Origin: a virus
DNA: 64,000 nt
Virus record (IMG/VR): IMGVR_UViG_3300045988_116799
Span: 13,506-77,505 of that record
Strand: one strand, 5' to 3'
Each line of letters begins with the position of its first letter. The first letter of the stretch is position 1. The notes under the pieces were generated by a model. That model was not told where the DNA came from. It ran no database searches and was given only the letters and a program-made list of their open reading frames with translations. The position numbers and the translations under genes are program-made. Of the stretch, positions 4,332-57,304 are shown piece after piece.

Positions 4332-5717
4332 TCAGCATTCGATATACTCCATCTGATTAGTCGAGCCTTCAAAGATATATCCGCACTCGTCCACAATCCT
4401 CACGTCCTCCAACGGCAGCAAGGTCTTCTTGCCATATTCCTTCTCTGCTTCCACCATCCACGCCACGATACCCATCATGCCACCATGCACCTCTCTGGCT
4501 ATTGTCTTGCCCGTCAGCTCACCATCAGCAGTCACCTCCGGCATACCGATAAGCATCTTTATCCAATTAGGTTCGCCCGTTTTCTCGCTCTTGCGTATCT
4601 CGTAGTCGAAGACAGTGAACGCCTGTCCGCTACGTGCCAACTCCAGTGGCTTTATATTCGGAGCGTCCATCTTGCGGTCTATGCGTATCTTCTTTGTCAG
4701 TTCTCGTAGCTTCATATCTTTCTCAATTTTCACCATCTCTCCGAATCCGTCAGTATGACGCATCAGTCCGAAGTAGCTGCCCCACGAATTATCGTTATTG
4801 CACATTCTCGCTCTCAATAGCGTGTCTTTGCGTATAAGGCAATAGCCCTTGTTCGAGTCCGTCACGCTCTTGTCGTTGTTGCGTATCACCCTATAACCGC
4901 AGAAGTCAATCCCTCGCTTGTCGTTGATGTCGGTAATCCTTGTATCGCCACGCTTCGCCCTCATCTTCAGCTCATACCACCAGTACTGCCTTATCCTCCA
5001 CTTCATCCGTTGCGCTTCCTCCCTTGTTCGGCAAGCCACCATGCAATTATCTGCATAGCACAATCGCCATTCAGTGTTTCGGCACAGCCACTCATGGAAT
5101 CTCAGCATCAGTATATGGTGAGCAAGCGGACTCGTCGGTGTGCCTACAGGCAGTTGCCCGTCAACAAAGCACAACTCCACGGCAAAGTCTATCAGCCACT
5201 TGTCACCAATAAGGTATTTCAGCTCCTTGCGCAGCACGCTCGGCTTCACGTGCATATAGCATTTTCGTTGATCGGCAGTCACTACCCAGTCCATTTCGCG
5301 CAGATCGTAAAACAGGTGCTTCACTCTTGGAAGAACATAGTTGCTTTTCAGCTCCTTGTGCTTTGCCGACGGAGTAATACCGCACCCTTCCTTGCAGTTA
5401 AGCGACACCAACGGGTCGCGTCTGCGGTATATCGGCTCCAACTTGTTCTTCAGCAGATGTTCATACACTAAAGTTCTGAACGTAGGCGCGTCGATATGCC
5501 TCACCTTCTTGTTGTTGTTCACCTTGGTCAGCTTCCAGTACTTGATGTCCTCATGCCAGCTTCCATCTTTGAGATGTTGTTCAATACTTGCGCATAGCCC
5601 TTTTACATCCTTCAATGCCTCCGCCACCTCTGGGCGTTTCTTTCTGCCCTTAGCGGCACTCTCCACTGCTCTGAGGTAGTCGTCAGCAACGAAGGGTATG
5701 TAGTTGGGTCTATGCAC
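4332..5717 (-). CDS. DGR reverse transcriptase
   Basis: 461-aa ORF with a GTG start. RT motifs: TADQRKCYMHV (A), GQLPVGTPTSPLAHHILM (B), RLCYADNCMVA (C), DFCGYRV (E). Lies 226 nt downstream of the TR on the same strand. Confidence 0.9.
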   Translation of the reverse strand: MHRPNYIPFVADDYLRAVESAAKGRKKRPEVAEALKDVKGLCASIEQHLKDGSWHEDIKYWKLTKVNNNKKVRHIDAPTFRTLVYEHLLKNKLEPIYRRRDPLVSLNCKEGCGITPSAKHKELKSNYVLPRVKHLFYDLREMDWVVTADQRKCYMHVKPSVLRKELKYLIGDKWLIDFAVELCFVDGQLPVGTPTSPLAHHILMLRFHEWLCRNTEWRLCYADNCMVACRTREEAQRMKWRIRQYWWYELKMRAKRGDTRITDINDKRGIDFCGYRVIRNNDKSVTDSNKGYCLIRKDTLLRARMCNNDNSWGSYFGLMRHTDGFGEMVKIEKDMKLRELTKKIRIDRKMDAPNIKPLELARSGQAFTVFDYEIRKSEKTGEPNWIKMLIGMPEVTADGELTGKTIAREVHGGMMGIVAWMVEAEKEYGKKTLLPLEDVRIVDECGYIFEGSTNQMEYIEC

Positions 5718-10000: not shown

Positions 10001-13000
10001 TTAATACTCACTCATTCGGCCTGTAATGTACGTGCAATTCCAATCCGTGCCGTCATAGATAAACAGAGATATTTGTCCTCGCGAGTTAGACAGACGCTGT
10101 TGCGTCACATCTGTTCCTCCTGCGGTTCGGATATTCTTTTTGTTGCTCTTTATGTAGACCTTTCCGCCACCCTTCTGTATCACTGTCACCTGCTGACCTG
10201 CGATTGGTTGTGTCGGTAACGATACGGTGATTGCGTAACTTTCATTTTTAGCTACCACAAGCCCCGTACTGTTGCCCATGCCCGAATCACTTCCGGTGTC
10301 ATGCACATGATTTACAAACACACCACGGATAGCCGCATTAGTCTCCATCACGATGCCTCCTTGAGGTTTGTAAAGATATACTGCCGGAGTCTCACCCCCG
10401 AATGGCGAATATACATAAGCAGTCAGTTGTGCTGTACCAAACGTAGCACCGGGTATCGCGTAGCCCGTCGGCAAGCCCCAATCGTTTGTGGCGCCTCTTG
10501 CAACGGTGTAAGCCGACTTGCCCAGCCAGATGCCAGTATAATTGCCGGCACCGTCACCACAACCGAACTCAGTCACCTGTGCTCCAGTACGCATATATCC
10601 TGAAATTGGGTTGCCGCTGCGCACAAAAGCAGGTGTGTACTGTATCATGCTGCCGCTTATATTTACGTTTCCTACTGTCGTGTCGTTAGCTGTGATAATG
10701 TCGCAACCAAGATTTTCATCGTGCTCAATCGCCCAAATTCCGAATCTACTGCTGCCTGTCACATTCAGATTCCCTGCTTCCACGCTCTCGGTTCTCAGAG
10801 TGTCGATTACCGCTTGCTTAGCTTTTATAAGATTAGCATTAATAGCACCGTCCTTGAACACAGCGGTCTCTTTACCGCTTTGGTCTCTGAACACCGTCTT
10901 GTCTGCCGTCAGCGTTATCTGCTTGCTGTTAATATCAATGCCAGCAGCAAGCAGTCGCGACGACATAGAGCGACTTGTCGTGTACTCCGTCACCGTAGCG
11001 CCGTATTCCAGCTTCGGCTGAGATACATAGAGGTCACAACCCTGCATACAGCGTATAAGCACGTATTTAGGCAGATTGCCGCCTACCACTCTCCAGTGCA
11101 CCCAGTATCGTTTCCATACATAGTCTTCCTTAAACTCCACCTGAGCGTTGCCGTCTGCTGCTTGATGTTGATTAGGACCGTCTACTCTGTCTAATACCTC
11201 AGTATATACAACTTGATTACCGTCTTTGTATAAGTACGCTACGAACTTACCTCCGATATTACCCTTTGCCATAAACGAGAGCATATAGTCCTGTCCTTTT
11301 TTCACCACATCGTCACCTAAAGTCCACTCCAGCATATTAATGCTATTGACATTAGTAGCATTTCTAATGTCAGTATTCAGCGTAGGCAGACCGTTATACG
11401 TCTGCCTAATTTTTTCGTCAGCGCTGTCATTTTTAGGATGTAGAGTCGAATAGCTTTCATCACGCCAAGTCAGATTGCCTCCTACATGCAACGTATCAGT
11501 ATTATCAAGCAAATTGCCCCCGACATAATCCGCATCCTCCTTCGACAGCGACCAACCTACATATTCGTCGCCCTCGACGAGCATAGGCTGGCTGAGGTAA
11601 AATGCGCCATCTTTATCAAGATTTGTAAGTATGTCTACCTGTATGTATTCATAAGGAGCATCAGGTTGCACTGTTATAACTCCTTCAATACGTTCCCATT
11701 GTGTTCCAACCGTTTTCTGCGCCACAAAGCCACTGCCATTAGGCCCTTTATATCCTTCTGCCGAATCGACACTTGTAGCATTCTTTGTCCAAACCGCCTC
11801 TAATGCCACAGTAATGGGTGTCGTCGCTTTTGCCATCACGGAAAAATGGTATTTCTTACCCTTTTCGACTTTGATATTACGACCGCCTACATACGTATTA
11901 TAACACCATTTTAGGCCGGTGAAACCTTTTTTTGAACAACAACACGAATTAACTCCGTTATATTGTTCAAGTATAGAAATAAAGGAATCACCAACGAGAA
12001 ACACTCCTTCACCCTGCCTTCTCAGCGCACTCCCAACAAGCAAATTCTTCCTGCCCACAGCCGTTTCGCTCACCTTCAGCGAAATATCCCGTGCCGTCTG
12101 CTTGATAGTCGAAGTGTAGTCCGTCAGCTCGCCCTGTGTCTTCAGAGGTAGGTTATTGTATTTGTTGCTAATCTCAGAGAAACTACTTGTCAACCCGTAC
12201 ATATTCATCTCGATGCCGCCCCACACCGCCGACACTTCAATGTCCACCTTCAGCGTGGTATAGATATAGCTGTCCGTACCATCAGCAGCTTTATACCTCG
12301 CAGCTAAAGTGACACTCGCAGTAGTCACTGGCACCAGAATGGTCGTGCCGTCAGATGCCGTGACAGTATGTTGAAAGACATCCTTGATACGGACGTAAAA
12401 ACCATCGTTGTCTGCTTCCACTACCGCGTCACAACCTCTCGGTTGCGCGGAAGGGTAGCCGAGAATATGACTCATACCCCAGTCCTCACCGTCACGACTG
12501 AATTTTACCCGTGCTACACTGTCCGAATCTATCACAGCAGACACATTGCCGTCGCTGTCCCGTTCAGTAGAGAGTACGAGAGGATTAGGATTCCATAACG
12601 CAACAATAGCGCTCTCACCGTCCTTACCTGGTTTGCCTTGCGCTCCTGGTTGTCCGTCCGCTCCTGGCTCTCCTTGCGCTCCCTGAGGGCCACGGTCGCC
12701 AGTATCACCCTTCTCGCCCTTCTCCGCCTTCATCACCAGCTGCCAGTCGGCGTTGCCCTCCTTAGGCTCCGTAGTGCTGCCCTCGCTGTTAGTACACAGC
12801 CACACACCGTTATTATGCGAAACCTGGTCATAATAGCTGTAGCTCACACCATTCTGCCACTCGCCTCTGTAGTTCACAATGTGTATCGTGTCACCAGTAG
12901 GCGACACCCACTCAAACGACGTAGACACAAACTTACAGCCATCAGGCGAAACATAGAACACCTCGCAGCCCTCATGCGAATATCCCAAAACACCCTTATA

Positions 13001-15604
13001 CGCCACAATACGAGGAGTGCCAGGCCCCGTCGTCTCCAGTATCATCACGCCCTGGCGGTCACGCTCGTTAGGATTCTGATTGCCGTCAAGCACAATTGTG
13101 TCGCCAGCCATCGGCACGTCGCTGCCCAGCTCGCAGTTGTCCTTGGCTATCTCTATCCACCCGAACTTCTTGCCGTCATACAGCACATTGCCTTCCTCGT
13201 CAGTCAGCGCCACATTCTCATCGCTCACAGCCGTCACCAGTCGCCACCACGAGCGCGTCGGCTTCTGCTTGTTGGCAAGCCCGAACGTCTGGCAGCGGGC
13301 CTGGTCGCCCACACGCCACAAGTTCTGCGTAGCCGTAGTGCCGTCGTCGGCCAGCAGCCAGCAGCGCCAGCCTTTCAGCACGCCAGCCTCTATCAGCTCC
13401 TCAGTCTTGAATATCTTGCCGCCCGAACCGCTCAGGTACACATTGCCACCGGCATACGACAGCTTCCTCACCTCTAACTCTTGGAAAATAGCCTTGCCCC
13501 ACACCTGTAGTTCGTGAATGTCAAGCCTATACTTGCCGTCGCCACGGTCTACGATGCCAAACCCCTGCTGTGTCGCCCCGTTATAGCCCAGTGACACGAT
13601 ACGTCGCAGCACAGCGTTGCCCAACACTGCATTACCCTCCGCATCGACACCCTTTTCACCGTCACCTATCTTAAGACCCTTCATAAAGCGTATCTGTCCC
13701 TGAGCAATATCGTCATATTGCTTCGACAGAAAGTACTTGCTGCCATATTTAGAGACGATACTATTAAATTGTGAACCAGAATAGCTACTGCCGTTACCAT
13801 TTGAACTATTAGCAATGATTGTCTGCACATCATCTTTTAATTGTGTGACAGTTCCCTTGTTCGCCTGATTGCCGACTGTGATTTCTTGAATAAAATCATA
13901 ATCCAGATTGGTCGTTACCTTTAAAATTCGAGTGTCAAGTGTATAACCTTGACCATCGCTATATTTTACCTTTTGTCCAATTTGTAATCTCGGATTATTT
14001 GCTTCAAACACCTGCGGATATACAGAAAATTCGTAGTTGTTTAAATCTGAATTTAACCGTTCAATTTCTTTTATCGCTTTGTTCAACAATTTTTCTTGTG
14101 CGTCTTTCTGATATTGTTCAGACATCGCGATATTGTACAGGACAGTAATATTACAGCTTAAATTTGGCAAAGATTCGCCACGAGGTATCAACCTTTCATT
14201 TTCATTTGTCGGTATTATAAGATTATTCTCTTCTTGATAAATTATCTCATAGTCACCGCTCAAAATATTAAAATTGGCTGAATCTACATCATCAGAATCA
14301 TGCGCTGAATAATTGTCCTTGTGATATTTCAGCTCAAAACCAACATGCTCTCCATTTGTTCCACGACCTGCCAACGGGGTAGACAATGCATTAATGTTCG
14401 TATTCGCTTCGAATGAGCATGACAATGTTTTGCCGTTAACAATTAAATTGTCGGTTATTTCAAAGTCATACCAATAATGTGTTACCCCATCGTCTACAGT
14501 TTTATTCACAAGTTTTTTGGTCTTGTCTTCTGTATTTGTGCAGTACGCAAGGCGCATATACCACACCGTGAAGGTTTTATACGTTGCAACACTGCCGTCA
14601 GCATTATATGTAAGTGGTATTTTCTTTTTCGTAGTATCATCAAGAACATATTTTTGTCTTCCTCTAACTTTGTAAACATAAGTGTTTAGCGAAGGGAAAA
14701 CGTCAGAGAAATTCAGTACTTTTGTCAGCAAAGGTTCTTTGGTCTTGTCTTTGCGCAAGTCTATCGTAGAGAAATCGTCTACAGTGTATTCAACTTCTTT
14801 ACCGTTAATGCTGACAATCCCTTTTCCGCTTGCTAATTGCAATCGTATATCACTTGAAGAAACGTTCTCTCCTAAACTGTTTGTCTGTGTAATATTACGT
14901 GTACCACCAAACACGGTGTATGCATTATAGTAATTCTCTTTGCTTTCTGTGACAGATGGAGTTCCTATATTTCTTCCTACTTCTAACGGCACAGCAACTT
15001 CATCCAAGACAACTTTGCCAAGATAAATGTCTTCGTTGTCGTAATCTATATGCCATTCACACGTATCTCCTTCCGCATTTGCTATAGAAGACAAAGCAGA
15101 CAATACGTCATTATCAGAAAACGATACGGATAAAGAATTTTTTAATTCACCAGACAAAACTGACTTCCATCCGCATTTGCCAAACTGAATATCATTGTTT
15201 AGGAAATCGCATATTTTACCCATTATAACATCAGGCGTACCAACGAAAGTCCAGTTAGTCTGTTTTATGGTCTCGTTTTGCGAGTTTTTTGTTTTTATAT
15301 AGAAAGGTATTTTGCCTAACAACATTTTCGGATGCTGAAACTCCGGCGTATACTTCCACGACATTTCGTCAGTTTGCACTGGCTCGTAAGGTTCAAGCAG
15401 AGAAAAACGCTGTGTCACCTTGCGTGTCTGGTCTATATAATACGTGTGTACAATGTAAGCTCCGACGGGTAAAATGATTTTACAAGCAGCACTAAAAGAC
15501 AACGAGATAAAGTCGGACTTTGAAAGCTCTTCTTCTCGTTGTGCTTCTTTTGTGATAGGCGCTTGCATTATTATCTCGCCGTCAAGATTGTATATGTTTA
15601 TCAT
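10001..15604 (-). CDS. Large tail tip protein (Tal-like host-specificity protein) with collagen-like repeat
   Basis: 1867-aa ORF directly after the Dit-like gene. Contains a Gly-X-Y run GEKGDTGDRGPQGAQGEPGADGQPGAQGKPGKDGE (~12618-12725). ATGA overlap with the upstream gene. Confidence 0.75.
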   Translation of the reverse strand: MINIYNLDGEIIMQAPITKEAQREEELSKSDFISLSFSAACKIILPVGAYIVHTYYIDQTRKVTQRFSLLEPYEPVQTDEMSWKYTPEFQHPKMLLGKIPFYIKTKNSQNETIKQTNWTFVGTPDVIMGKICDFLNNDIQFGKCGWKSVLSGELKNSLSVSFSDNDVLSALSSIANAEGDTCEWHIDYDNEDIYLGKVVLDEVAVPLEVGRNIGTPSVTESKENYYNAYTVFGGTRNITQTNSLGENVSSSDIRLQLASGKGIVSINGKEVEYTVDDFSTIDLRKDKTKEPLLTKVLNFSDVFPSLNTYVYKVRGRQKYVLDDTTKKKIPLTYNADGSVATYKTFTVWYMRLAYCTNTEDKTKKLVNKTVDDGVTHYWYDFEITDNLIVNGKTLSCSFEANTNINALSTPLAGRGTNGEHVGFELKYHKDNYSAHDSDDVDSANFNILSGDYEIIYQEENNLIIPTNENERLIPRGESLPNLSCNITVLYNIAMSEQYQKDAQEKLLNKAIKEIERLNSDLNNYEFSVYPQVFEANNPRLQIGQKVKYSDGQGYTLDTRILKVTTNLDYDFIQEITVGNQANKGTVTQLKDDVQTIIANSSNGNGSSYSGSQFNSIVSKYGSKYFLSKQYDDIAQGQIRFMKGLKIGDGEKGVDAEGNAVLGNAVLRRIVSLGYNGATQQGFGIVDRGDGKYRLDIHELQVWGKAIFQELEVRKLSYAGGNVYLSGSGGKIFKTEELIEAGVLKGWRCWLLADDGTTATQNLWRVGDQARCQTFGLANKQKPTRSWWRLVTAVSDENVALTDEEGNVLYDGKKFGWIEIAKDNCELGSDVPMAGDTIVLDGNQNPNERDRQGVMILETTGPGTPRIVAYKGVLGYSHEGCEVFYVSPDGCKFVSTSFEWVSPTGDTIHIVNYRGEWQNGVSYSYYDQVSHNNGVWLCTNSEGSTTEPKEGNADWQLVMKAEKGEKGDTGDRGPQGAQGEPGADGQPGAQGKPGKDGESAIVALWNPNPLVLSTERDSDGNVSAVIDSDSVARVKFSRDGEDWGMSHILGYPSAQPRGCDAVVEADNDGFYVRIKDVFQHTVTASDGTTILVPVTTASVTLAARYKAADGTDSYIYTTLKVDIEVSAVWGGIEMNMYGLTSSFSEISNKYNNLPLKTQGELTDYTSTIKQTARDISLKVSETAVGRKNLLVGSALRRQGEGVFLVGDSFISILEQYNGVNSCCCSKKGFTGLKWCYNTYVGGRNIKVEKGKKYHFSVMAKATTPITVALEAVWTKNATSVDSAEGYKGPNGSGFVAQKTVGTQWERIEGVITVQPDAPYEYIQVDILTNLDKDGAFYLSQPMLVEGDEYVGWSLSKEDADYVGGNLLDNTDTLHVGGNLTWRDESYSTLHPKNDSADEKIRQTYNGLPTLNTDIRNATNVNSINMLEWTLGDDVVKKGQDYMLSFMAKGNIGGKFVAYLYKDGNQVVYTEVLDRVDGPNQHQAADGNAQVEFKEDYVWKRYWVHWRVVGGNLPKYVLIRCMQGCDLYVSQPKLEYGATVTEYTTSRSMSSRLLAAGIDINSKQITLTADKTVFRDQSGKETAVFKDGAINANLIKAKQAVIDTLRTESVEAGNLNVTGSSRFGIWAIEHDENLGCDIITANDTTVGNVNISGSMIQYTPAFVRSGNPISGYMRTGAQVTEFGCGDGAGNYTGIWLGKSAYTVARGATNDWGLPTGYAIPGATFGTAQLTAYVYSPFGGETPAVYLYKPQGGIVMETNAAIRGVFVNHVHDTGSDSGMGNSTGLVVAKNESYAITVSLPTQPIAGQQVTVIQKGGGKVYIKSNKKNIRTAGGTDVTQQRLSNSRGQISLFIYDGTDWNCTYITGRMSEY

Positions 15605-27144: not shown

Positions 27145-27996
27145 TTACTTGTTTTTGTTTTCTCCGTTAATTTCGGCAATGGCTTGCTTTACATTAAAAT
27201 CGTTGCCGTAAAGCGCAATAATAAAGCGTTTGCCACGCTGATTCCATACAAGGGTTGTACTGGTTGATATTTCACCATTGCTTGACTGATAGTTGTAGGT
27301 GCGTGTACCTGCCAAGTTCCAACCTTTATAAGGCATCTTTAAGTGCCATTGTCCCGATTGCGAGTAAATTATACCTAATTCTTTTAGCTTGGCGTTGAGC
27401 GAGCGTGCCGTAATGTGCAAGTCGTCGGCAACTTGCGTTGTTGTAATGCAAGTTGTTGAAGCAAGTGTGTTGTCGTAGTATTCTGCTTTAGGTGCTGCGA
27501 TTTTGATTTGCTTGTCTTGCGCATCTATCTGTGCGTCTTTTTGTTCGATAACTATTTCTTGATAACGACCTTGTTCTTCAAGCTCTTTAATGCGCTTTTC
27601 GTGCTCGGCAATAACCTTGTCAGCAACTTTCATTGCACGTGCTAAAATTGTTGCAGGAGTGTCATTCTGTGTTGTTGCAATATAGCCACCTTTGGTGCGA
27701 ATTTCGTGAAGGATTTTCTTTACACCTTTCTTGAACTGCTTAGCAATTGGTTTGCGTGATTGCATAAGCAATTCATAAACACCTTCCTCTGTTAAGAACC
27801 ACATACTGCCACCACGACTTAACTTTAAATTAAGTCGTTCGTCCTCGTCAACATTGGCAACAGCACGTGACACATTCTTTAAACCAAGCCAATTCTGTAC
27901 ATCATTAGCCCGAAATAACGGGTTTTCAACAGACCCCCATACATCAATTTCCTTATCAAGGAAGGTTGATTTACTAATAATTCTGATTTCTTCCAT
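27145..27996 (-). CDS. Bro-N / KilAC-type phage antirepressor-like protein
   Basis: 283 aa. N-terminus has a Bro-N-like NPLFRANDVQNWLG...WFLTEEGVYELLMQSRKPIAKQF. C-terminus is KilAC-like: APKAEYYDNTLAS...TTTQVADDLHITARSLNAKLKELGII. Confidence 0.7.
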   Translation of the reverse strand: MEEIRIISKSTFLDKEIDVWGSVENPLFRANDVQNWLGLKNVSRAVANVDEDERLNLKLSRGGSMWFLTEEGVYELLMQSRKPIAKQFKKGVKKILHEIRTKGGYIATTQNDTPATILARAMKVADKVIAEHEKRIKELEEQGRYQEIVIEQKDAQIDAQDKQIKIAAPKAEYYDNTLASTTCITTTQVADDLHITARSLNAKLKELGIIYSQSGQWHLKMPYKGWNLAGTRTYNYQSSNGEISTSTTLVWNQRGKRFIIALYGNDFNVKQAIAEINGENKNK

Positions 27997-28210
27997 CTTG
28001 TGAACTTTTTAGAAGAATTTAGGCAAACAAAAAGCGGTCGCCATATACGCTGTTCACAAGATGGTAGTCCACTCGTAAGAGCTTCGTTTTTATCTATACG
28101 TATTGGCGACCGTGTATATTTCGGTCTTAAAGAGCATAAAATATGCCTATCCAGACGAATGAGCATTAACCGCTGCTCCCACGTAATGGTTTACCATCAT
28201 CTTGTGAACG
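27997..28210 (-). ncRNA. Structured 5' leader, copy A (candidate cis-regulatory attenuator)
   Basis: A 12-mer occurs three times: 28198-28209, reverse complement at 28052-28063, and 27994-28005 including the ATG. GC helix 28035-28049/28099-28112 is followed by a U-tract. A second copy lies at 57305-57516. Confidence 0.6.
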
Positions 28211-28213
28211 CCA

Positions 28214-28221
28214 CAAAATTA
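28214..28221 (-). promoter_or_regulatory. -7 promoter box TAATTTTG for leader A
   Basis: Plus caaaatta; a second TAATTTTG box with an upstream ACTAATAAA motif lies at 28297-28304. Confidence 0.45.
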
Positions 28222-28451
28222 TAAATTCTTCTGTAATGTACAAAATTTTTTTTGAGATATTTCTTATAATTTATTTTTCTATTATTTTTAACGTTGCAAA
28301 ATTAATAAAAATAGACGTAAAAACCAAGAAAACTAATAAAAATATTAATATTTAATATATATTTTATATTGATATAAATTTGTATAAAAATCATTTTAAT
28401 AATTTACTATTAAACAAAATTTACTACATTTGCAGCATAAAATTATTGCTT

Positions 28452-30373: not shown

Positions 30374-30480
30374 TGTTGTATCTCCTATATTTATTAGTTG
30401 TTATTAATTTTAACACCACAAAATTAATAACAATTCTTGAAACGACCAAATAAAACTAATAGAAGTATTAATATTTAAGA
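30371..30480 (-). promoter_or_regulatory. Early promoter/leader cassette (copy 1)
   Basis: Minus strand reads TTAAATATTAATACTTCTATTAGTTTT..TTATTAATTTTGTGGTGTTAAAATTAATAAC..AGGAGATACAACAATG. Confidence 0.55.
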
Positions 30481-30531: not shown

Positions 30532-31317
30532 CTATTTTACGGCAGAGGTGTTTTTGAATTTGTTGATAAAATAGCACTGTCCCTTGCCAGTCACCTTTGT
30601 TGTGATTGTTGTATGCATAACGCCATCATTTCCGCTACGCACACCCTTCTTTATCTCGAAAAGTCCTTGCTCGACATATTGTTGGTTGGGGATATTGTAC
30701 CGTTCGCCTTTCTTGCCAAGATAGCCATTGTTCCGCAACCATTCAAACAACTTGTTCTGACCTATTGTAATGCCATTCTGTGTAAGAACTTTTGCAAGTT
30801 CCCCAACAAGACAGCTTGCCTTGCTTCCAACAATAGCATCGGCAAATGTGACCTTAGGCTGCATTTGCATGACCACGCCATTTAAAACAACGATTTCATG
30901 CGCTGATTCTTGCAACGCCTTTTGCTGTCGCTCGATTTTTTCTTGTTGTTCAGCCGCGAGGCGCAGAGCTTCGGCAAATGTCTGTGGCAGTCCATACTTT
31001 CCTGTTTTGCGGATTGAGGGTAATACATCGCCACACACCCAATCTTGGAAAGGCTCTGCGATAGGCTTGTCGGAGCGCATAATTAAACGATAGAGGTTCT
31101 GCTCGTTGATAAAGTGTGCTCTTTGTGTGCGCCCCATAGAATCTATGACCTCGATTGAATCTACCCCATCTTCTTTTAGGCGTTTCTTAGCGTCTGTGGC
31201 GTTGTTTATTCCTAATACTCGACAAATGTCTGCCAAGCAAAACAATGGCTCTTCACTCGTCCCTGCTGTTCTAATCTTTCCGAACGCAGGATTTTCAAAT
31301 ATTTTTATCTCGTTCAT
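30532..31317 (-). CDS. Bro-N / KilAC phage antirepressor (Ant-like)
   Basis: 261 aa. N-terminus FENPAFGKIRTAG..EPLFCLADICRVLG...QNLYRLIMRSDKPIAEPFQDWV. C-terminus PQTFAEALRLAAEQ...KVTGKGQCYFINKF. Confidence 0.8.
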   Translation of the reverse strand: MNEIKIFENPAFGKIRTAGTSEEPLFCLADICRVLGINNATDAKKRLKEDGVDSIEVIDSMGRTQRAHFINEQNLYRLIMRSDKPIAEPFQDWVCGDVLPSIRKTGKYGLPQTFAEALRLAAEQQEKIERQQKALQESAHEIVVLNGVVMQMQPKVTFADAIVGSKASCLVGELAKVLTQNGITIGQNKLFEWLRNNGYLGKKGERYNIPNQQYVEQGLFEIKKGVRSGNDGVMHTTITTKVTGKGQCYFINKFKNTSAVK

Positions 31318-34683: not shown

Positions 34684-34815
34684 AATGTTCTAAAAAAGAA
34701 ACTCCCAATGTACAGCGGACTAGGCAACACTGACAATGGGAGTTATTGTATATTTAGACCCTTTTCTATTCAGATAGGGAAATTGTTCTTTTAGTGCCTT
34801 GTCATTTGAACGCCA

Positions 34816-34823
34816 CAAAATTA
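34816..34823 (-). promoter_or_regulatory. -7 box TAATTTTG for the 33946..34683 gene (~130-nt leader)
   Basis: Plus gaacgccacaaaattaataa, the same context as the leader A promoter. Confidence 0.4.
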
Positions 34824-34873
34824 ATAAATTATTAGCGTGTATGCACGTTTAAAATATTAAAATATATTAAAGA

Positions 34874-39628: not shown

Positions 39629-40477
39629 ATGGCAAATTTGAAATTAACAAAAGAGAGTACGAATAGTGAAATCAAGGAGTATTTTACCGCAGTGTTAAAC
39701 CTTTCACAGTCCAACAGGGAATTTCCTGTAAGTATTGATGATGTATGGCCGCTTGTATATGGCAAGAAATCGGATGCTGTAGAAGCACTCATTAATAATG
39801 AGCAGTTCATAAAAGATGTTGACTATCAAGTTTTGCGGAAAAATCCGCAAAACCCCAAAGGGGGTAGACCTACAATAGAATACTACCTTACGACTTCTTG
39901 TCTTGAATATTTTATTGCCCGGAAAATCCGTAGTGTATTCGAGGTCTACCGGCAAGTCTTTCATAAAGCGGTACAAGCTATTGCTGTTCCTCAGACTTTT
40001 GCCGAAGCGTTGATGCTCGCCGCTAAACAACAGCAGGCTATTGAGGAAAAACAACGGCTAATAGAGCAAAAGAATACAGAGATAGAACAAAAGAACACAG
40101 AAATAGTTGAACTTTCAACCGCTATCACAGAAATGCAGCCTAAAGTCAGCTATGTAGACACTATTCTCCAGTGTAAAGATACTGTACAGGTGACACTTAT
40201 TGCACAAGATTATGGGAAATCAGCAAAAGCGTTCAATGTACTTCTTCGCAATATGCAAATACAGCGCAAGGTTGGCACAACATGGGTTGTACGTGCTAAA
40301 TATCTACAATGTGGTTATGTTCAGTCGGAAACATTTGAATATCCGCATAGTGACGGTACAAAAGGCGCGCGTGTCTATACGAAATGGACACAAAAGGGTC
40401 GATTGTTCTTATACGAAACATTAAAAAAGCATGGTATTCTACCACTTGTCGAACAAACAGAGCAAGCAAAGAAATAA
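39629..40477 (+). CDS. KilAC-domain antirepressor-like protein with a distinct N-terminal domain
   Basis: 282 aa; PQTFAEALMLAAKQQ...MQPKVSYVDTIL...TKWTQKGRLFLYETLKK parallels the C-terminus of 30532..31317. Confidence 0.65.
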   Translation: MANLKLTKESTNSEIKEYFTAVLNLSQSNREFPVSIDDVWPLVYGKKSDAVEALINNEQFIKDVDYQVLRKNPQNPKGGRPTIEYYLTTSCLEYFIARKIRSVFEVYRQVFHKAVQAIAVPQTFAEALMLAAKQQQAIEEKQRLIEQKNTEIEQKNTEIVELSTAITEMQPKVSYVDTILQCKDTVQVTLIAQDYGKSAKAFNVLLRNMQIQRKVGTTWVVRAKYLQCGYVQSETFEYPHSDGTKGARVYTKWTQKGRLFLYETLKKHGILPLVEQTEQAKK

Positions 40478-45512: not shown

Positions 45513-45797
45513 ATGACAGCGGAAGACATCTTGAAATATTGTCATTTCTATAAAGGTGAGGTGCTAATGCCTGATTCTTTAGAAGAAACAAATGAAGGTC
45601 AGCTATGGCTGGCTGAAAAAACAGTATGCGAGGAATTCGTAAATGACATTCATGTTGACACAGCACAAAAAGACGTTGCTTCTATTGTTGCTGCCTATGT
45701 TGGGAAATGGAATCCTTATGAATTGTCGGATGTTATGAACACGTACCTTACAAAGGTTCCAGAGGTTGAAACCTTCATAAGGCAAGTGTATTTATAG
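45513..45797 (+). CDS. Hypothetical protein
   Basis: 94-aa ORF; a TAAATTTG -7 box lies at 45479-45486; converges on the MuF-like gene with a 6-nt overlap. Confidence 0.45.
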   Translation: MTAEDILKYCHFYKGEVLMPDSLEETNEGQLWLAEKTVCEEFVNDIHVDTAQKDVASIVAAYVGKWNPYELSDVMNTYLTKVPEVETFIRQVYL

Positions 45798-48700
45798 TTC
45801 AAATAAGGCGTTTCCTTTGATATAATAAATGGATGCGCCTTTCTTTTTAAATTCCTTGGCAATCTTTAAAATTTTATCGTGAGAACCATCTAAAATATCG
45901 TATGGATAAGTTATGGATTCAATACAATCAATTGTAAGCTGCCCGTGGTATTGTAGTTCTAGATACGAAGATATATGTTCTTTTTTAAATTCTACGAGGT
46001 TTGTTGTTTGTATGTCTATTGATGTTGGTGTATTATAAAAATCATCAAACGAGCACGCTTTGGGGTCGCTAACGAGAGACGGCTGATATCTAACCCCTAA
46101 AGAATCTCCTGCCGTCCACGTTGCGACAACTTTGTCTTTCTTAAAACGGACTTCCACGTTACCATAACTTCTTGCTGTGTTGTTTTGCATTGAGCGCAGT
46201 ATATTGTGGTCAAGAAGGTTTCCGTATTTCTCATATTCTTTTCTGTCTAATTGCTGAACTGCAAGGTCTTTTCGCGGAAGGCCAAACATCTTATGGGCGG
46301 CACTTAAACGTGAATGTGTAGGACTAATTTTTCCTGTTGTGGACGTAGAACCTAAATAACCTCCGGATGAGCCAGTCTCGAAAGTGTTCATAAATTTTGA
46401 ATTTAAGACCTTTTCGAGTATGGAATCTTTTATATTCATTCCTAAATCATGCTCACTGAACACTTTTTGCATCAGTAATTCTATCTCATTCTTATGCGTT
46501 TTTGCTGTGACACCATAATAACGGCTGTTCTTCTCGTATTCGCTTATTGCATCTTCAAGATATTCAAGAGTCTTTGGAAATTTCGTACCAAGGCGTTTTT
46601 TCAAGTCTTCTATTGTTTCGTGATTAACTGCTGTTTCTTTTAATAGCTTTGGCGATTTCAATTTGTTTTTTAATAGTTGCTGATATTTTCTATTAATCTC
46701 CTGCGCTTTGCTTTTTGCCAAATCCAAGTCAACATTTCTCCGTGTCAGTATATGATTTATCTCTGATGCCAGTTCTTTGATTTTTCTACTTTTTGATAGA
46801 GTAGCATATGCGAGTGCATCGCTGACACTGTCGGCAACGGCTTTAATGTCAATCTTTCTCTCTACTATACGTAATTCTTTCTTATACGCATCTTGAGCAA
46901 CTTTCCATGTATCGTATTTTTTATGTTCTTCAACCCATTTAATCTCAGATTCCAGAAAGCGTTTCCTTGGAAGTAATTCAACGCTTTCTCTTGCCAGTCT
47001 TGCTTCAATAGCTTTGTTAATTGCAATAGCTTCTGACATTGAGTAATTGCGAGCGACAAGGATAGGATTTTCAAGGCGTGACAGAGATAAAATCTTTTTC
47101 CCTTGTTCTTTCAATGCTTTGGCTTCTTCATAAATATTTACATAATCTCTTGCTTCAAGAGCTGTCTTTAATGCCGATGTGTCCACATCTTTAATGCCAT
47201 TCATATAGCGTAAGACGCTTTCGCCATAATGAACGTAAGCTCTTTCTGTTGCAAGTCGTCTTTGTCGTTGTTCGGCTCTTCTTTTGATTGATTCTGCGTC
47301 TCGCTTTGCGTGTCGTGCCTTAGCAATCTCTTGTATGGCATCACGGCGTGACATTGCGTCAGCACCCATTTGTTTGCGCTGTGTTGCATCCAAAAACTTC
47401 ACCCAATAACTTTTATTGTTTGCCAAGTGCCACGCCAACTTGTCCCGTTTATAAGCGTCCACGATTTTGTTTGCATTATCCTCAATGTACCGTTTATATT
47501 GGTCGGGCATATCTTTAATACGGTTAGGAGATACGTAATTGGACATATCTTCTCCGTTGAACAGCCGTTTGTAGAATTGCTTGCGTTCTTCGCCACTTAT
47601 CATTATAGGGTCACTGGTACACATGCAGTTTGAGCCCCAAAAGCATTTGCCGTCTTTCTGTATATACATGATGTGATTGTTCTCAAGTGTAACGTCGTAC
47701 ACAAAGCCGATGTATTCAACTTTCTCCTTGTTAAATACAGTGGCGGTTGCTGAATCGCATTCACTTATTCTGTAACAGTCATATCGCTGCTTTATAACTG
47801 TACCATCTTTTTTGACAGTATTTTTAGGTGACATTATTCTATATGACGGTCGATGTCCTACTTTTAACAATAGCAAACCTATTTCAGCTGCCATTTGAGG
47901 AGAAGATGTAAAATACATTCTTTCTCCATGATTTGGAGTACATACATGACCTCTGTTGCCCATAAAAGGACGTGGCTTCTTGATATGTCCGTCGCACACA
48001 ATAAAAGCATCAAGAAATATTTGGATTTGTCTCTTTGATGCATTTAAAATTTCTTGTGGTATATATTTATAATGTGCAGTTCCGTATTTTAAAAGCTCTT
48101 GACCAAAAGCACGGTGATATAAAACAATGGTGCTTTTATAAACGTGTGGCGTAAAACCCATCTTCTTGATACAAGTTTGCATACGTTTCCAAGCAGGCTG
48201 TCCTTTTTCTTGCGACAAAACAATACCGTAGTCATGTTGCATACTACCGTCTGCAAGGTAATACCCCATAAATTCACAATACACATCAAAAGGTATATTT
48301 TTGTCGCCAAACATAATGTTCGTGCGGTCTTTGGCGGTATTGACAGCGGAACGATAGAAAGCCCCCATACTTGGCTTGTATTCCGTAGCGTTGCATTTTT
48401 TTATTTCGTGAGCACCGCTTTTGCTGATATACACCATTTGATGTTCTGGAGTAACAAGACATTCCAATGAACGGTTAAAAAAGTGTATAAGTTCTCCATT
48501 GTAAGGGTATTTTTGTACTCCTACAATATTTGTTTCTTCTATTTCACGTGTCTGTGGATTTAAAGAATATACAACATCCTGAGTCGTAACATCTTTAAAT
48601 TCTTTCCATCCTTTTGTAGTCAGAACCTGAGTACCTTCGGCATAACATTGAGGGTGCCAGCCATTCCACACAAAGCCTTTAGGATAGTACCCTTCAAGCT

Positions 48701-49550
48701 CGTCGCAAATGTCAGCATCTTCGTCTGGGTCGTGCTGTGGAGATACGTGTATATGCTGCCCTATGACGAAAGGCTCGTTTGCCCAACGCTCGTTCCTTGC
48801 TGTGTGGTATGCTGCATTGATTTCGGTACGAGCCACACGTAAAGCATTCTTTCTTGCGGAGCGATATACGCCCAGCCCTACATGTTCGAGCGGTTCTTCT
48901 ACAAAGCGTACACGTCCGTCAATAATGCGCTTCCTGCGCCAAGTGACAATATCTTTCTTCTGTCCGTTCTTTAACACTTTTACTGTGTGGTAACGACGAT
49001 ACATCATATCCGGGTTATTCAAATATTGTCGTATTCTTCTACCCACTTCCTCTGCGGATTCACCCTTTCCCAGTCCGTCGGCTATCACGTTAGACATCGC
49101 CATCTCGAACTCTGCTTTTGTTTGCTGACAGTAGTTCCATACGGACCGCGCGAGGTTCAAGCCTATCTTAGAATTGAGTCTATTGGCTATGAACGTCGCA
49201 GCAGCCGTTTTTCTTGCGGTTTCTAATGCTTTGTCTGTTAGCACAGAGAATTGCCCTATTGTATCATTGTCGTGCGCATACGCAAGAGAAACGCCGCTTG
49301 TTATGCCGCTTTTGTAGCATAACATGCTATTTTGGAAATAGTCGTTAAATATGTCTTCAAGTCGAGCTTTAAGCAAAGGAAAATTGTCAAAATTGAAAAG
49401 AGCGTCATTTTCGAGCACGTCTTCGCTATAGCCAAGAGCGAGCAGCTTCCTGACATAACTTCCGTACAACATGCCAAGTCGGCGGTTGTATTCGGCGAAT
49501 AGCCTGTTTAAATCTTCCTTTCGCTTTTTAGCTGTAAGTTTTTCTGCCAT
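45792..49550 (-). CDS. Head morphogenesis protein (MuF/SPP1 gp7-like) with an intein and a ~600-aa C-terminal extension
   Basis: 1252 aa, directly downstream of the portal gene. The N-terminal ~300 aa are gp7/MuF-like. The WHPQ|C...N|CMC junction restores an HPxCxC-type motif once residues 302-641 are removed. Confidence 0.75.
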   Translation of the reverse strand: MAEKLTAKKRKEDLNRLFAEYNRRLGMLYGSYVRKLLALGYSEDVLENDALFNFDNFPLLKARLEDIFNDYFQNSMLCYKSGITSGVSLAYAHDNDTIGQFSVLTDKALETARKTAAATFIANRLNSKIGLNLARSVWNYCQQTKAEFEMAMSNVIADGLGKGESAEEVGRRIRQYLNNPDMMYRRYHTVKVLKNGQKKDIVTWRRKRIIDGRVRFVEEPLEHVGLGVYRSARKNALRVARTEINAAYHTARNERWANEPFVIGQHIHVSPQHDPDEDADICDELEGYYPKGFVWNGWHPQCYAEGTQVLTTKGWKEFKDVTTQDVVYSLNPQTREIEETNIVGVQKYPYNGELIHFFNRSLECLVTPEHQMVYISKSGAHEIKKCNATEYKPSMGAFYRSAVNTAKDRTNIMFGDKNIPFDVYCEFMGYYLADGSMQHDYGIVLSQEKGQPAWKRMQTCIKKMGFTPHVYKSTIVLYHRAFGQELLKYGTAHYKYIPQEILNASKRQIQIFLDAFIVCDGHIKKPRPFMGNRGHVCTPNHGERMYFTSSPQMAAEIGLLLLKVGHRPSYRIMSPKNTVKKDGTVIKQRYDCYRISECDSATATVFNKEKVEYIGFVYDVTLENNHIMYIQKDGKCFWGSNCMCTSDPIMISGEERKQFYKRLFNGEDMSNYVSPNRIKDMPDQYKRYIEDNANKIVDAYKRDKLAWHLANNKSYWVKFLDATQRKQMGADAMSRRDAIQEIAKARHAKRDAESIKRRAEQRQRRLATERAYVHYGESVLRYMNGIKDVDTSALKTALEARDYVNIYEEAKALKEQGKKILSLSRLENPILVARNYSMSEAIAINKAIEARLARESVELLPRKRFLESEIKWVEEHKKYDTWKVAQDAYKKELRIVERKIDIKAVADSVSDALAYATLSKSRKIKELASEINHILTRRNVDLDLAKSKAQEINRKYQQLLKNKLKSPKLLKETAVNHETIEDLKKRLGTKFPKTLEYLEDAISEYEKNSRYYGVTAKTHKNEIELLMQKVFSEHDLGMNIKDSILEKVLNSKFMNTFETGSSGGYLGSTSTTGKISPTHSRLSAAHKMFGLPRKDLAVQQLDRKEYEKYGNLLDHNILRSMQNNTARSYGNVEVRFKKDKVVATWTAGDSLGVRYQPSLVSDPKACSFDDFYNTPTSIDIQTTNLVEFKKEHISSYLELQYHGQLTIDCIESITYPYDILDGSHDKILKIAKEFKKKGASIYYIKGNALFEL
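47628..48647 (-). mobile_element. Intein with LAGLIDADG homing endonuclease (340 aa, residues 302-641)
   Basis: Starts CYAEGTQVLTTKGW (block A). LAGLIDADG-like FMGYYLADGS and FLDAFIVCDGH. Block F/G FVYDVTLENNHIMYI...CFWGSN followed by +1 Cys. Confidence 0.8.
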
Positions 49551-56438: not shown

Positions 56439-57304
56439 TTATTTAACGGTTTTACCGTTGATGTTAGAAATAGCGAGCTTTACATTAAAATTGTTTTTGT
56501 AAAGTGCGAGAATAAAACGTCTGCCTCGTTGACTCCAAACCAGATATGGCTTGGCATAAGTTACGTCTTTGTGTCTGTCGTAATAGGTGTAGGTTCGTGT
56601 GCCGTGCAAATTCCATGTGCTGTAAGGCTTGTTCATCAGCCATTGGTTGGATTGACGGAAAATGATTTTGAGTTGCTGCAATTTGTTGTGTAACTCATTA
56701 GGTGTTATGCCAAGCTCGTTTGCGATTTGCCGTGTGGTGAGCATGTTCTCGGCAGCAAGCGTCTGCTCGTAGTATTCTACCTTTGGTGCATCCTTGGCGA
56801 TACGCTCGCTTTGTACTTCGATAACTTGTTTGCTTTGGCTGTTTTCGCATTCAAGTTCTTTGATACGCTGCTCACGTCGTGCGAGTGCTGTCTTGGCTGC
56901 TATCAAGCCACGGGCAATTATGTCTTCCTCGCTGTCTTCTTCTTTAGTCACAACGTATGCGCCTGTTGTGCGAAGCGAGGGCAGAACTTCGTTGAATACC
57001 CAATCTTGAAAAGCAATAGCATTCTTTTTGTTAGAGCGAAAAATACAACGATAGAAGCCAGGTTCTGAAATAAAATACATTTCTTCATCTTTAAAGATGC
57101 CTGTTTTTTGCCGTGTGCAACAACCTCTTTTGAGACCTTAATAATACTTAGGTCTCTAATTAAGCGTTCTTTCGTTATACTTGGGTTGGATAATCCTAAA
57201 GCCTTGCATACATCAGAAAGGCAAAATAAAGGTTCTCCGTTTTTGCTTAACGCTGTACGGAGTTCTCCAAACATTGGAGAATTGAAAATTTTTACATCGT
57301 TCAT
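56439..57304 (-). pseudogene. Bro-N / KilAC antirepressor-like gene split by a frameshift in an A6 run
   Basis: ORFs 56948..57304 (Bro-N N-terminal half) and 56439..57080 (rest of Bro-N plus KilAC) overlap. One extra A in the run at 57104-57109 would fuse them into ...VAHGKKTGIFKDEEMYFISEPGFY... Confidence 0.6.

Follow-up and report, generated by a model that had tools for sequence, protein, structure and literature searches.

Two copies, A and B, of a structured 5' leader lie on the minus strand of the 64-kb window, the whole stretch of DNA analysed here, and in each of them a single short word stands at the predicted start of the RNA, recurs further down as its reverse complement and is repeated over the start codon of the gene behind. 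Both copies belong to a large family of ~185-190-nt 5'-leader RNAs of temperate Bacteroidales phages. The preferred reading, put forward with moderate confidence, is that the leader is a switch gating the operon behind it, in most cases one with an antirepressor-family gene, and that the variable word is its specificity address. The features drawn from sequence analysis are three pairings with their conservation and covariation, a terminator, an energetic preference and an association with particular genes. Table 1 lists the parts of the two copies.

Table 1. Parts of leader copies A and B and the genes that they would control, by position in the window.
Feature	Sequence	Position	Strand	Remarks
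Copy A promoter, -33 element	TTTG	28241-28244	minus	19 nt upstream of -7 box
Copy A promoter, -7 box	TAATTTTG	28214-28221	minus	fits Bacteroides TAnnTTTG consensus
Copy A word 1 (segment 1)	GTTCACAAGATG / GUUCACAAGAUG	28198-28209	minus	5'-terminal address copy
Copy A P2 hairpin	GAUGG-UAAA-CCAUU	28185-28198	minus	5' arm can lengthen P1 instead
Copy A P3 hairpin	GAGCA-GCGGUUAA-UGCUC	28161-28178	minus	loop and 3' strand near-invariant family-wide
Copy A P4 hairpin	family consensus GGGCuUUUUUUAuGCCC	28133-28148	minus	within invariant core
Copy A terminator 5' arm	CGGTCGCCAATACGT / CGGUCGCCAAUACGU	28098-28112	minus	pairs with 28035-28051
Copy A P5, small hairpin in terminator loop		28071-28082	minus	cUUCGg-type loop in most members
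Copy A word 2 (segment 2)	CATCTTGTGAAC / CAUCUUGUGAAC	28052-28063	minus	antisense copy, reverse complement of word 1
Copy A terminator 3' arm	AGCGTATATGGCGACCG / AGCGUAUAUGGCGACCG	28035-28051	minus	pairs with 28098-28112
Copy A U-tract	CTTTTTGTTTG / CUUUUUGUUUG	28024-28034	minus	directly after terminator 3' arm
Copy A word 3 (segment 3)	GTTCACAAGATG / GUUCACAAGAUG	27994-28005	minus	contains start codon AUG, 27994-27996
Controlled gene A		27145-27996	minus	283-aa Bro-N + KilAC (ANT) antirepressor-family protein
Copy B -7 box		57519-57526	minus	
Copy B word 1	TGCTCAAAGATGA	57503-57515	minus	
Copy B P2		57491-57504	minus	
Copy B P3		57467-57484	minus	
Copy B P4		57436-57456	minus	
Copy B terminator 5' arm		57404-57418	minus	
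Copy B P5		57379-57389	minus	
Copy B word 2	TCATCTTTGAGCA	57360-57372	minus	
Copy B terminator 3' arm		57344-57360	minus	
Copy B U-tract		57333-57343	minus	
Copy B word 3	TGCTCAAAGATGA	57301-57313	minus	
Copy B start codon	ATG	57302-57304	minus	
Controlled gene B		56439-57304	minus	Bro-N + KilAC antirepressor-family; two overlapping ORFs, 56948-57304 and 56439-57080

A preliminary description of copy A had reported the -7 box, the 12-mer, its complement and the repeat over the ATG, and all of these sequence statements were confirmed on the minus strand. The motif to which the -7 box conforms, TAnnTTTG, is the -7 consensus of Bacteroides (PMC4747536). Behind copy A, the encoded protein matches the Pfam families PF02498 (6.5e-15) and PF03374 (7.3e-22). 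Copy B (57301-57526, minus strand) is 83% identical to copy A and is recovered by the covariance model at E = 1e-30; relative to copy A, words 1, 2 and 3 are all altered in concert. When both strands of the 64-kb window were searched for word, reverse complement and word at this spacing, copies A and B were the only triples found, each as a run of overlapping 9-mers. Since block shuffles yielded a mean of 0.14 single 9-mer triples against these two loci, the arrangement is not a product of chance. Extra targets of the words were sought in 900 kb of neighbouring DNA, where 10 further 10-mer matches are about what chance would give. Within the window there is no tRNA or tmRNA, and megablast of the 10 kb around copy A against INPHARED returned no relatives. 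An ORF at 27879-28166 was considered as a gene and is unlikely to be one, given that homologues differ in length by amounts not divisible by three and that conservation tracks the helices.

Homologues of the leader are plentiful, both on IMG/VR contigs and among the genomes and phages of Bacteroidales, with carriers among gut and oral phages of Bacteroides, Phocaeicola, Parabacteroides, Prevotella and Porphyromonas. Loci of the family are present in Phocaeicola vulgatus ATCC 8482. The triple is preserved in two Porphyromonas phages, in at least 117 IMG/VR stretches retrieved by the terminator pattern and, among the matches listed, in a second, unbiased collection retrieved by a core-domain pattern. 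A genome scan located the leader almost exclusively in Bacteroidales contigs. Two carriers are short contigs binned as Clostridia and are probably mis-binned, while pattern matches in non-Bacteroidales phyla are without the triple. Several leaders lie within chromosome-sized bacterial contigs and therefore belong to prophages. The genes behind the leaders mostly encode Bro-N, Rha or AntA-like + KilAC antirepressor-family proteins, the others being small early-operon ORFs; in one subfamily the first genes downstream are small ORFs without a PHROG match. On the upstream side the genes are mutually unrelated, and the search for a conserved partner gene near the leaders found none. Many of these upstream genes resemble lipoprotein-like cargo genes.

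In 74 of 86 family members, the -33 and -7 elements are spaced by 19-20 nt. In 91 of 96 leaders only 3-5 nt separate the end of a Bacteroides-type -7 box from word 1, so word 1 is likely to form the 5' end of the RNA. The family is previously undescribed and is missing from Rfam: cmscan of the window with Rfam 15 at the gathering score gave zero family matches, permissive scans of both copies (E up to 10) gave chance-level snoRNA and lncRNA matches only, and a literature search found no description of such an RNA from Bacteroides or Bacteroidales phages.

Retention of the three-segment arrangement in homologues had been named beforehand as the test on which the preliminary description should stand or fall, and the homologues bear it out. 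Among the 90 covariance-model matches, the pairing of word 1 with word 2 is preserved in 87 and that of word 2 with word 3 in 88. With few exceptions, the end of the word 3 match falls between -6 and +4 nt relative to the ATG, in keeping with the earlier proposal that the second pairing would bury the start codon. At least 96 distinct word sets occur, always co-varying, with 3-5 base-pair types per position. The 96 distinct triples are 97-100% paired, compared with 45-70% when partners are shuffled. At the covariance-model positions, the median energies of cognate duplexes are -23.8 and -25.3 kcal/mol, versus -8.5 and -12.9 kcal/mol for non-cognate ones, and 87 of 90 word 1:word 2 duplexes lie past the 1st percentile of non-cognate combinations. 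Leader-peptide attenuation was rejected as a general mechanism because the ATG that lies in word 1 of copies A and B is lacking in most family members.

Repeats of this kind might also arise at the level of DNA, as an invertible segment, as the duplicated target site of a small insertion or as retron-like a1/a2 repeats. The layout, with inverted repeats around ~130 bp and direct repeats around ~190 bp, would suit such an origin, and invertons are abundant in Bacteroides genomes (PMC4747536; general knowledge). Nevertheless, this explanation is very improbable. All 90 covariance-model matches are full length and in one orientation relative to the gene, and among the matches listed no inverted or 'empty' variant occurs in ~250 loci. 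While the recombinase sites of an inverton would be conserved, these repeats are hypervariable, as the number of word sets attests. Target-site duplication leaves the internal complementary copy and the overlap with the start codon unaccounted for. A retron fits poorly with adjacent genes that are antirepressor-type, and the sole reverse transcriptase of the window, at 4332-5717, is ~22 kb away. In addition, G-U pairs are tolerated in the word pairings, which points to RNA rather than DNA.

The remaining helices are supported to differing degrees. For the stem that the preliminary description had taken for an intrinsic terminator upstream of the ORF, compensatory changes are found at 10 of 14 pairs, 98-99% of cells are paired and conservation of the T run that follows reaches at least 90% across 52 diverse members. 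The assignment stands in these respects, but the structure is not a textbook terminator. In copy A it encloses ~47 nt, made up of a small hairpin and word 2, and for that reason it was absent from the output of a simple terminator scan with a loop limit of 8 nt. A terminator enclosing at least ~47 nt is atypical and its efficiency may be lowered. Compensatory changes are also present at all five pairs of P2 (95% of cells paired), at all four pairs of P5 (91%) and at four pairs of P4 (80%). P3 is a different matter, with columns CGGT and TGCTC invariant and of low entropy and 62% of cells paired in the modelled register. Since its strands are near-invariant and MAFFT set the helix in three different registers, P3 is without covariation support.

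Folding agrees family-wide with the earlier suggestion that segments 1 and 2 pair as an antiterminator. In unconstrained minimum-energy folds P1 is present in 83 of 86 leaders, and this fold is better by 8.8 kcal/mol on average than the best fold without word 1. When word 1 is blocked, the terminator folds in 81 of the 86. When it is absent, the 3' part of word 2 is accessible, with an unpaired probability of 0.8-0.9. Word 2 occupies the loop of the terminator, immediately next to the 3' arm, so from RNA geometry P1 and the terminator should be unable to coexist. In the folding models, antiterminator and intrinsic terminator are accordingly mutually exclusive, as they share a strand region.

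The preferred reading of the leader as an address-coded switch combines these features with steps that we infer, namely a start site at word 1, action in trans, which way the control runs and whatever part the P3-P4 core plays. The RNA would begin at or beside word 1, an address word of 10-20 nt, and three mutually exclusive pairings would define two states. In the ON state, word 1 would join word 2 in the antiterminator helix P1, the terminator would be blocked, polymerase would read through and the start codon would be free. In the OFF state, word 1 would be unavailable, the terminator would form and an RNA of ~185 nt would be released; in transcripts that read through, word 2, presented in the terminator loop, would pair with word 3 and hide the start codon. 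Word 1 could be made unavailable by word 2 of terminated leader RNAs, which would occupy it in trans. The locus would thereby produce its own antisense repressor, one that would block word 3 too. By analogy with P4 CI and P1 c4, the terminated leader probably doubles as an antisense immunity RNA. The address word would decide which leader answers which RNA, so that immunity would be specific and several copies could work orthogonally in the same genome. The terminated RNA retains its own word 1, and since the self-paired P1 fold is predicted to be more stable, a free word 2 would require kinetic trapping or 5' processing.

A broader proposal, held more tentatively than the switch itself, is that temperate phages of Bacteroidales possess an RNA-only, address-coded form of immunity. 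The loop word of the ~185-nt terminated RNA that each leader makes would act in trans on the 5' end and the start codon of cognate transcripts and so silence both elongation and translation of antirepressor or early operons, and fast evolution of a 10-20-nt word would generate new immunity types and allow several orthogonal switches per genome. The P3-P4 core would be a separate module for a host factor, polymerase or ligand that couples the switch to the state of the cell. To our knowledge, the combination of address-coded RNA immunity and a separate core module is undescribed in any phylum.

The turnover of the words bears on action in trans. In the family alignment, the words vary as much as linkers under no constraint, and the core is invariant. 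Around the leader, 023a and 024a, two phages of P. gingivalis, have 97% identity; their 112-nt core is unchanged, but coordinated changes are found in all three words. In a Prevotella genome two units stand in tandem. Apart from the words, the terminator loop and P2 they are more than 95% identical, and the three words carry matching C>G / G>C / C>G substitutions. Among the matches listed, the word differs between leader copies of one genome in every case. Since the words vary like linkers and differ between paralogues and between near-identical phages, the term 'cis-regulatory' used in the preliminary description is probably incomplete: the cis pairings are upheld, while the variation of the words fits antisense or immunity specificity.

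Variability alone, however, is no proof of a trans role, because P2, an ordinary cis helix, equals the words in this respect and demonstrates that a cis helix in this setting can do so. The leader could be purely cis-acting, with a P3-P4 core whose ligand is a metabolite, RNA polymerase or a protein of phage or host origin, and with words that are merely structural. The binding event would then decide whether word 1 meets word 2, and no trans RNA would be involved. Identical pairings and energetics suit such a switch, kinetics favour pairing in cis, and no other part of the leader comes close to the core in conservation, as expected of an aptamer or protein site. A three-way structural constraint should slow change, yet the words differ in near-identical phages and tandem paralogues with unchanged flanks. 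Furthermore, Rfam gives no aptamer match, no conserved neighbour gene is available to encode a dedicated binding protein, and the genes downstream are phage regulators, not metabolic genes. On balance, a leader acting only in cis is unlikely, although it is the most probable of the alternatives weighed here. A ligand sensor in the ~130-nt domain, as put forward in the preliminary description, is unsupported, although a novel aptamer class within the P3-P4 core is conceivable. The switch model does not itself reach as far as the P3-P4 core, and this, together with the lack of a conserved partner gene nearby and of extra target sites beyond chance in the neighbouring DNA, counts against that model.

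The word 1:word 2 helix, of 12-35 bp, could instead serve as a processing signal. Cut by a double-strand RNase of the RNase III type, it would release the structured core, which would persist as a stable small RNA, and the remaining mRNA, now lacking word 2, would be licensed for translation by the cleavage. Control could also be by activation, as for IsrK of Gifsy-1, whose terminated leader acts on its own read-through mRNA and is a precedent for positive control (PMC4825925). The predicted helix of copy A extends to ~35 bp, and family members have perfect duplexes as long as 16-20 bp. Across the family, though, P1 pairing reaches to an offset of ~14 and is kept inconsistently beyond ~15 bp. 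Processing alone also gives no reason for word 3 to match word 2 or for a terminator with a conserved U-tract to surround word 2. As a replacement for the switch it is improbable; it is compatible with that reading and may add to it.

Among known systems, the closest in logic are the immunity RNAs of phages P4 and P1, to which the leader is analogous and not homologous. The CI RNA of the satellite phage P4 is ~70 nt long, compared with ~185 nt for the leader, and has no homology to it in sequence or structure by Rfam matching. CI is cut out by processing, whereas the antisense word of the leader is looped out by an intrinsic terminator, which would itself make the 3' end. Unlike in P4, a phage of enterobacteria, the upstream copy in these leaders of Bacteroidales can pair in cis as an antiterminator. 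Both systems have their antisense element in the untranslated leader that precedes the operon under control, with complementary copies upstream (seqA in P4) and downstream (seqC) of it (seqB) in the same transcript. In P4, and as proposed for the leader, premature termination abolishes downstream expression and short complementary words set specificity (PMC4825925). In the immI region of P1 and P7 (c4-icd-ant), c4 likewise controls an antirepressor gene, ant, from within its own transcript (PMC8201110), and its target reaches into the translation start of the operon's first gene. Heteroimmune relatives carry matched changes in antisense and target (Citron and Schuster 1990, via PMC8201110). 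Unlike the leader, c4 uses two short loop sequences (a' and b'), is released by RNase P and targets translation, with polarity as a consequence; it has no built-in choice of terminator and antiterminator and forms a separate RNA family. The Rfam 'C4' covariance model, which covers c4, CI and IsrK, matches neither copy even with E raised to 10, so the resemblance is confined to logic. The preliminary description, which had recognised no known riboswitch or leader, was right as regards Rfam, but its logic has known analogues in P4 CI and P1 c4. As in c4, CI and IsrK, the antisense segment of the leader lies between upstream and downstream complementary copies in one transcript, and the downstream target overlaps the site at which translation of a phage regulatory operon begins, in its first gene. 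The heteroimmunity pattern of that group is found at the sequence level in 023a and 024a, in the tandem Prevotella units and in copies A and B.

Other regulators share individual elements. As proposed for the leader, IsrK of Gifsy-1 exists both as a short RNA that ends at an intrinsic terminator and as a read-through mRNA; by pairing with the mRNA, the short RNA controls translation of the genes behind it, an antirepressor-like gene among them (PMC4825925). Unlike the leader, IsrK activates, is related in structure to the P4 family and has neither a three-copy word nor a 5'-terminal antiterminator strand. In the countertranscript-driven attenuation of the plasmids pT181 and pIP501, binding of an antisense RNA to the nascent 5' leader bars antiterminator pairing and an intrinsic terminator forms, as proposed here, but the antisense RNA comes from the opposite DNA strand and no copy lies at a start codon. 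In the leaders, no conserved promoter on the opposite strand was noticed. Riboswitch platforms also set a 5' strand against a terminator for a shared 3' segment and control both transcription and translation; the leader differs in having no described aptamer class, no metabolic genes and hypervariable switching strands. Finally, the lambdoid PR' leader (6S RNA / StxS) is a terminated RNA of similar size upstream of a phage operon and can act as a small RNA (PMC7547250). Its read-through depends on the Q protein acting on polymerase and not on alternative RNA pairings.

The control of lysogeny and lytic growth in temperate phages of Bacteroides, Phocaeicola, Prevotella and Porphyromonas has been very little characterised. 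The leader family flags a control point before antirepressor-type and early genes in hundreds of gut and oral phage genomes, and it supplies a concrete, testable mechanism for the control of those genes. It is also a clean natural case of three-way covariation and a sizeable addition to the RNAs that Rfam lacks. For Bacteroides, where genetic tools are scarce, three co-rewritable words on a fixed scaffold would amount to a programmable orthogonal switch. If the word is indeed an immunity address, superinfection immunity groups would become readable from sequence, and the address would account for near-identical prophages that differ at exactly these bases.

Two leaders in the window, copy A and copy B, share an arrangement in which a short word near the 5' end (word 1) is followed by its complement in a terminator loop (word 2) and by a further copy at the start codon (word 3). 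For copy A, the three segments on the minus strand, the GC-rich helix around the middle one and the ensuing U-tract reported in the preliminary description were all recovered at the same positions (table below). When both strands of the 64-kb window were scanned, triples of word, reverse complement and word at this spacing occurred only in copy A and at 57301-57515, compared to a mean of 0.14 single 9-mer triples in shuffled sequence. Copy B is 83% identical to copy A, and its words are all altered jointly (TGCTCAAAGATGA / TCATCTTTGAGCA / TGCTCAAAGATGA). Matches of a covariance model in the window were exactly copies B and A (E = 1e-30 and 2e-27, respectively).

Features of the two leaders, recurring promoter cores and downstream genes
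Feature	Position	Strand	Remark
Copy A -33 element TTTG	28241-28244	minus	19 nt upstream of TAATTTTG
Copy A -7 box TAATTTTG	28214-28221	minus	4 nt before word 1
Copy A word 1 GTTCACAAGATG	28198-28209	minus	4 nt after the -7 box
Copy A terminator 5' arm CGGTCGCCAATACGT	28098-28112	minus	pairs with AGCGTATATGGCGACCG
Copy A word 2 CATCTTGTGAAC	28052-28063	minus	~134 nt after word 1
Copy A terminator 3' arm AGCGTATATGGCGACCG	28035-28051	minus	immediately after word 2; pairs with CGGTCGCCAATACGT
Copy A U-tract CTTTTTGTTTG	28024-28034	minus	after terminator 3' arm
Copy A word 3 GTTCACAAGATG	27994-28005	minus	its ATG starts ORF 27145-27996
Promoter core	28211-28226	minus	leader copy A follows
Promoter core	57516-57531	minus	leader copy B follows
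Promoter core	about 60015-60035	plus	no leader downstream
Promoter core	about 30385-30405	minus	no leader downstream
Promoter core	about 34810-34830	minus	no leader downstream
Gene A, Bro-N + KilAC protein	27145-27996	minus	behind copy A
Gene B, Bro-N + KilAC type, frameshifted	56439-57304	minus	behind copy B

In two Porphyromonas gingivalis phages, a distant BLAST search matched the 3' half of the leader; each phage has the complete arrangement with words of its own, GCTACAAGAT and GTTCACAGAT. In IMG/VR, a pattern built on the terminator 3' arm matched at least 117 stretches, and nearly all of the 65 unique leaders among them have the three words at fixed positions. A second pattern was taken from the central domain and is hence unbiased towards terminator or words; its listed matches include a large second subfamily in which the terminator arm differs (GACACGGGAAATGGCAGCCGTTTTT) and the words reach at least 20 nt (e.g. 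GCTAAACAATCAAACAGT), again in three copies. Among bacteria, surveyed at one genome per species, the true members come almost entirely from Bacteroidales, represented by Bacteroides, Phocaeicola (including P. vulgatus ATCC 8482), Parabacteroides, Prevotella, Hoylesella, Mediterranea and Rikenellaceae, with a pattern match alone at the edge of a Muribaculaceae contig. Several leaders sit on chromosome-sized contigs and are therefore in prophages. Two full triples come from short contigs assigned to Lachnospiraceae and Ruminococcaceae, probably through mis-binning. The words are missing from the pattern matches in other phyla, which were discarded as chance.

The 76 representative leaders at <85% identity span 173-255 nt, with a mode near 190 nt. 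Insertions of 35-65 nt, such as an additional GC-rich hairpin 3' of the P4 hairpin, occur in L018, L048, L050 and others (e.g. L140, L185, L245), extending the RNA to as much as 255 nt with all three words intact. On a P. gingivalis prophage contig (L029), word 3 is deleted and the terminator is fused to the interior of the downstream ORF, a natural variant without the start-codon copy. Some genomes have tandem or multiple leaders, as in a Prevotella MAG (L230, 6196-6560 and 6584-6948) and in L229, L228 and L002.

Across 96 distinct word sets, word 1:word 2 is paired in 97-100% and word 3:word 2 in 89-100% of cases at positions 0-10, with 3-5 pair types at every word position and 45-70% pairing in partner-shuffled controls; the register came from the longest exact match, which forces pairing at the first nine positions. 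In an unbiased duplex test, the covariance model alone fixed the positions compared. Duplexes between the first 23 nt and the 24 nt preceding the terminator 3' arm had a median of -23.8 kcal/mol when cognate and -8.5 kcal/mol when non-cognate. Those between these 24 nt and the downstream 140 nt had -25.3 and -12.9 kcal/mol, respectively, with all cognate duplexes except two at or below -18 kcal/mol. As the preliminary description had proposed, a covariance model and homologue search were run, and the three-segment arrangement is kept, with 87/90 word 1:word 2 region duplexes past the 1st percentile of non-cognate pairs. A conserved switch with three pairings at the RNA level very probably exists.

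In a structure-guided alignment of 90 members, which was fitted to the covariance model and so favours its own structure, compensatory changes appear in 5/5 pairs of P2 (the hairpin directly after word 1), 4/8 pairs of the P4 hairpin and 4/4 pairs of P5, a small hairpin capped by a UUCG-type loop and enclosed in the unusually large terminator loop. The terminator stem is paired in 98-99% of cells with both-side changes in 10/14 pairs, and P3 is unsupported in the register modelled. Run on plain MAFFT alignments, RNAalifold gave independent predictions of P2, the P4 hairpin and the terminator. Conservation and pairing variability run in opposite directions. Almost no change is seen in the P3 loop and 3' strand (CGGUU..UGCUCA), the P4 hairpin (GGGC..GCCC) or the outer terminator stem; the words, P2 and terminator-loop linker vary as much as unconstrained spacers. 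In most members the terminator 5' arm reads GGCGGUUGCC, versus CACGGUCGCC in copy A, and its 5' part repeats the invariant hexamer GCGGUU of the P3 loop (P3 of copy A, 28161-28178). The P3 loop could therefore form an alternative pairing with the terminator 3' arm (..ACCGC), to which covariation in the family alignments (A4/A5) is blind because all partners are invariant.

Word 2 adjoins the terminator 3' arm within a few nucleotides. By general RNA geometry, a word 1:word 2 helix of at least 12 bp would exclude the terminator stem, while the terminator and word 2:word 3 would be compatible in a classical H-type pseudoknot layout. Folding agrees with the exclusion. Forcing the terminator costs 7.7 (copy A) and 14 kcal/mol (copy B) relative to the word 1:word 2 fold, and the word 1:word 2 helix is in the minimum-energy fold of 83/86 leaders (average advantage 8.8 kcal/mol). 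With the 12 nt of word 1 unavailable, 81/86 form the terminator. If word 1 is absent, the 3' part of word 2 is predicted to be highly accessible. The suggested burial of the start codon by the second and third segments fits a word 3 match ending -6 to +4 nt from that codon in nearly every leader. Family pairings and folding together support the antiterminator, terminator and start-codon sequestor first proposed. Given the folding preference, the default state would be word 1:word 2 pairing, read-through and an exposed start codon; occupation of word 1 by anything would cause termination, and transcripts that escaped would have their start codon hidden.

By comparison with the Bacteroides consensus (PMC4747536), a predicted Bacteroides-type promoter lies ahead of the leader. 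An nAnnTTTG box ends 3-5 nt upstream of word 1 in 91/96 leaders, with TTTG 19-20 nt further upstream in 74/86, and the RNA would therefore begin right at word 1. The phage has at least five occurrences of the core TTTA(T)TAATTTTGTGGYG, of which only two have a leader downstream; this recurrence suggests a co-regulated promoter class.

The commonest first gene in the family encodes an antirepressor-family protein with an N-terminal Bro-N, Rha or AntA-like part and a C-terminal KilAC part; 49 first-gene proteins form a single cluster. Leaders of the second subfamily precede operons made up of small ORFs that have no known relatives. No conserved partner gene was found near the leaders. Gene B comprises two overlapping minus-strand ORFs, 56948-57304 (118 aa, N-terminal part of Bro-N) and 56439-57080 (213 aa, remaining Bro-N and KilAC), and is a pseudogene, a sequencing error or a programmed frameshift; intact homologues exist (e.g. 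at locus L008, 284 aa). The phage has two further antirepressor-family genes, both leaderless, at 39629-40477 and, 12 nt after a dUTPase gene, at 30532-31317. The window is a phage genome encoding terminase, portal, major head, tape measure and tail-fibre proteins and a DGR-like reverse transcriptase, and both leader-antirepressor units head long same-strand packaging or structural clusters. The reverse transcriptase gene (4332-5717, minus; PHROG 1423) and a nearby gene for a 1867-aa protein similar to tail fibres or collagen-like proteins (10001-15604, minus) look like a diversity-generating retroelement. A 1252-aa head-morphogenesis-type protein (45792-49550, minus) contains a region matching a Bxa ADP-ribosyltransferase PHROG (E = 3e-79).

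The leader element represents a new RNA family with no entry in Rfam 15. No match was obtained at gathering scores, and searches of copies A and B at E up to 10 returned chance-level matches only, consistent with the initial failure to recognise a known riboswitch or leader. No tRNA or tmRNA was found in the window, and literature searches turned up no account of this kind of element from Bacteroides or Bacteroidales phages.

A purely structural three-way constraint should change slowly. Around the leaders of the two P. gingivalis phages, 3.2% of positions differ; the 112-nt core and terminator arm are unchanged, and coordinated changes fall in words 1, 2 and 3 and the P2 partner region. Two tandem Prevotella units, with >95% identity over the stretch from promoter into ORF, show matched word differences (C>G, G>C, C>G; and C>G, G>C, U>G) and also differ in P2, the terminator-loop linker and P5. 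Words always differ between copies in one genome. Since fast coordinated turnover and orthogonal paralogues are typical of specificity determinants, a specificity (antisense) role of the words is favoured on this comparative evidence. Against it, P2, a cis helix, is as variable as the words, and no extra word targets were found in neighbouring DNA. In satellite phage P4, the CI RNA is encoded in the leader and base-pairs with seqA on its upstream side and seqC on its downstream side, leading to premature termination (PMC4825925), and the present layout reproduces an antisense element between upstream and downstream complements. P1/P7 c4 controls an antirepressor operon (PMC8201110), and the leader likewise precedes one. 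It would act like the P4 CI / P1 c4 class without being a member, being built on an intrinsic terminator and a 5'-terminal antiterminator strand. The terminated leader of ~185 nt would be the antisense RNA. As word 1 remains part of this RNA, folding predicts that self-pairing is preferred, and a free word 2 would need kinetic trapping or processing. The full mechanism, trans action included, is plausible but could equally prove wrong; by analogy with IsrK, the direction of control could be positive.
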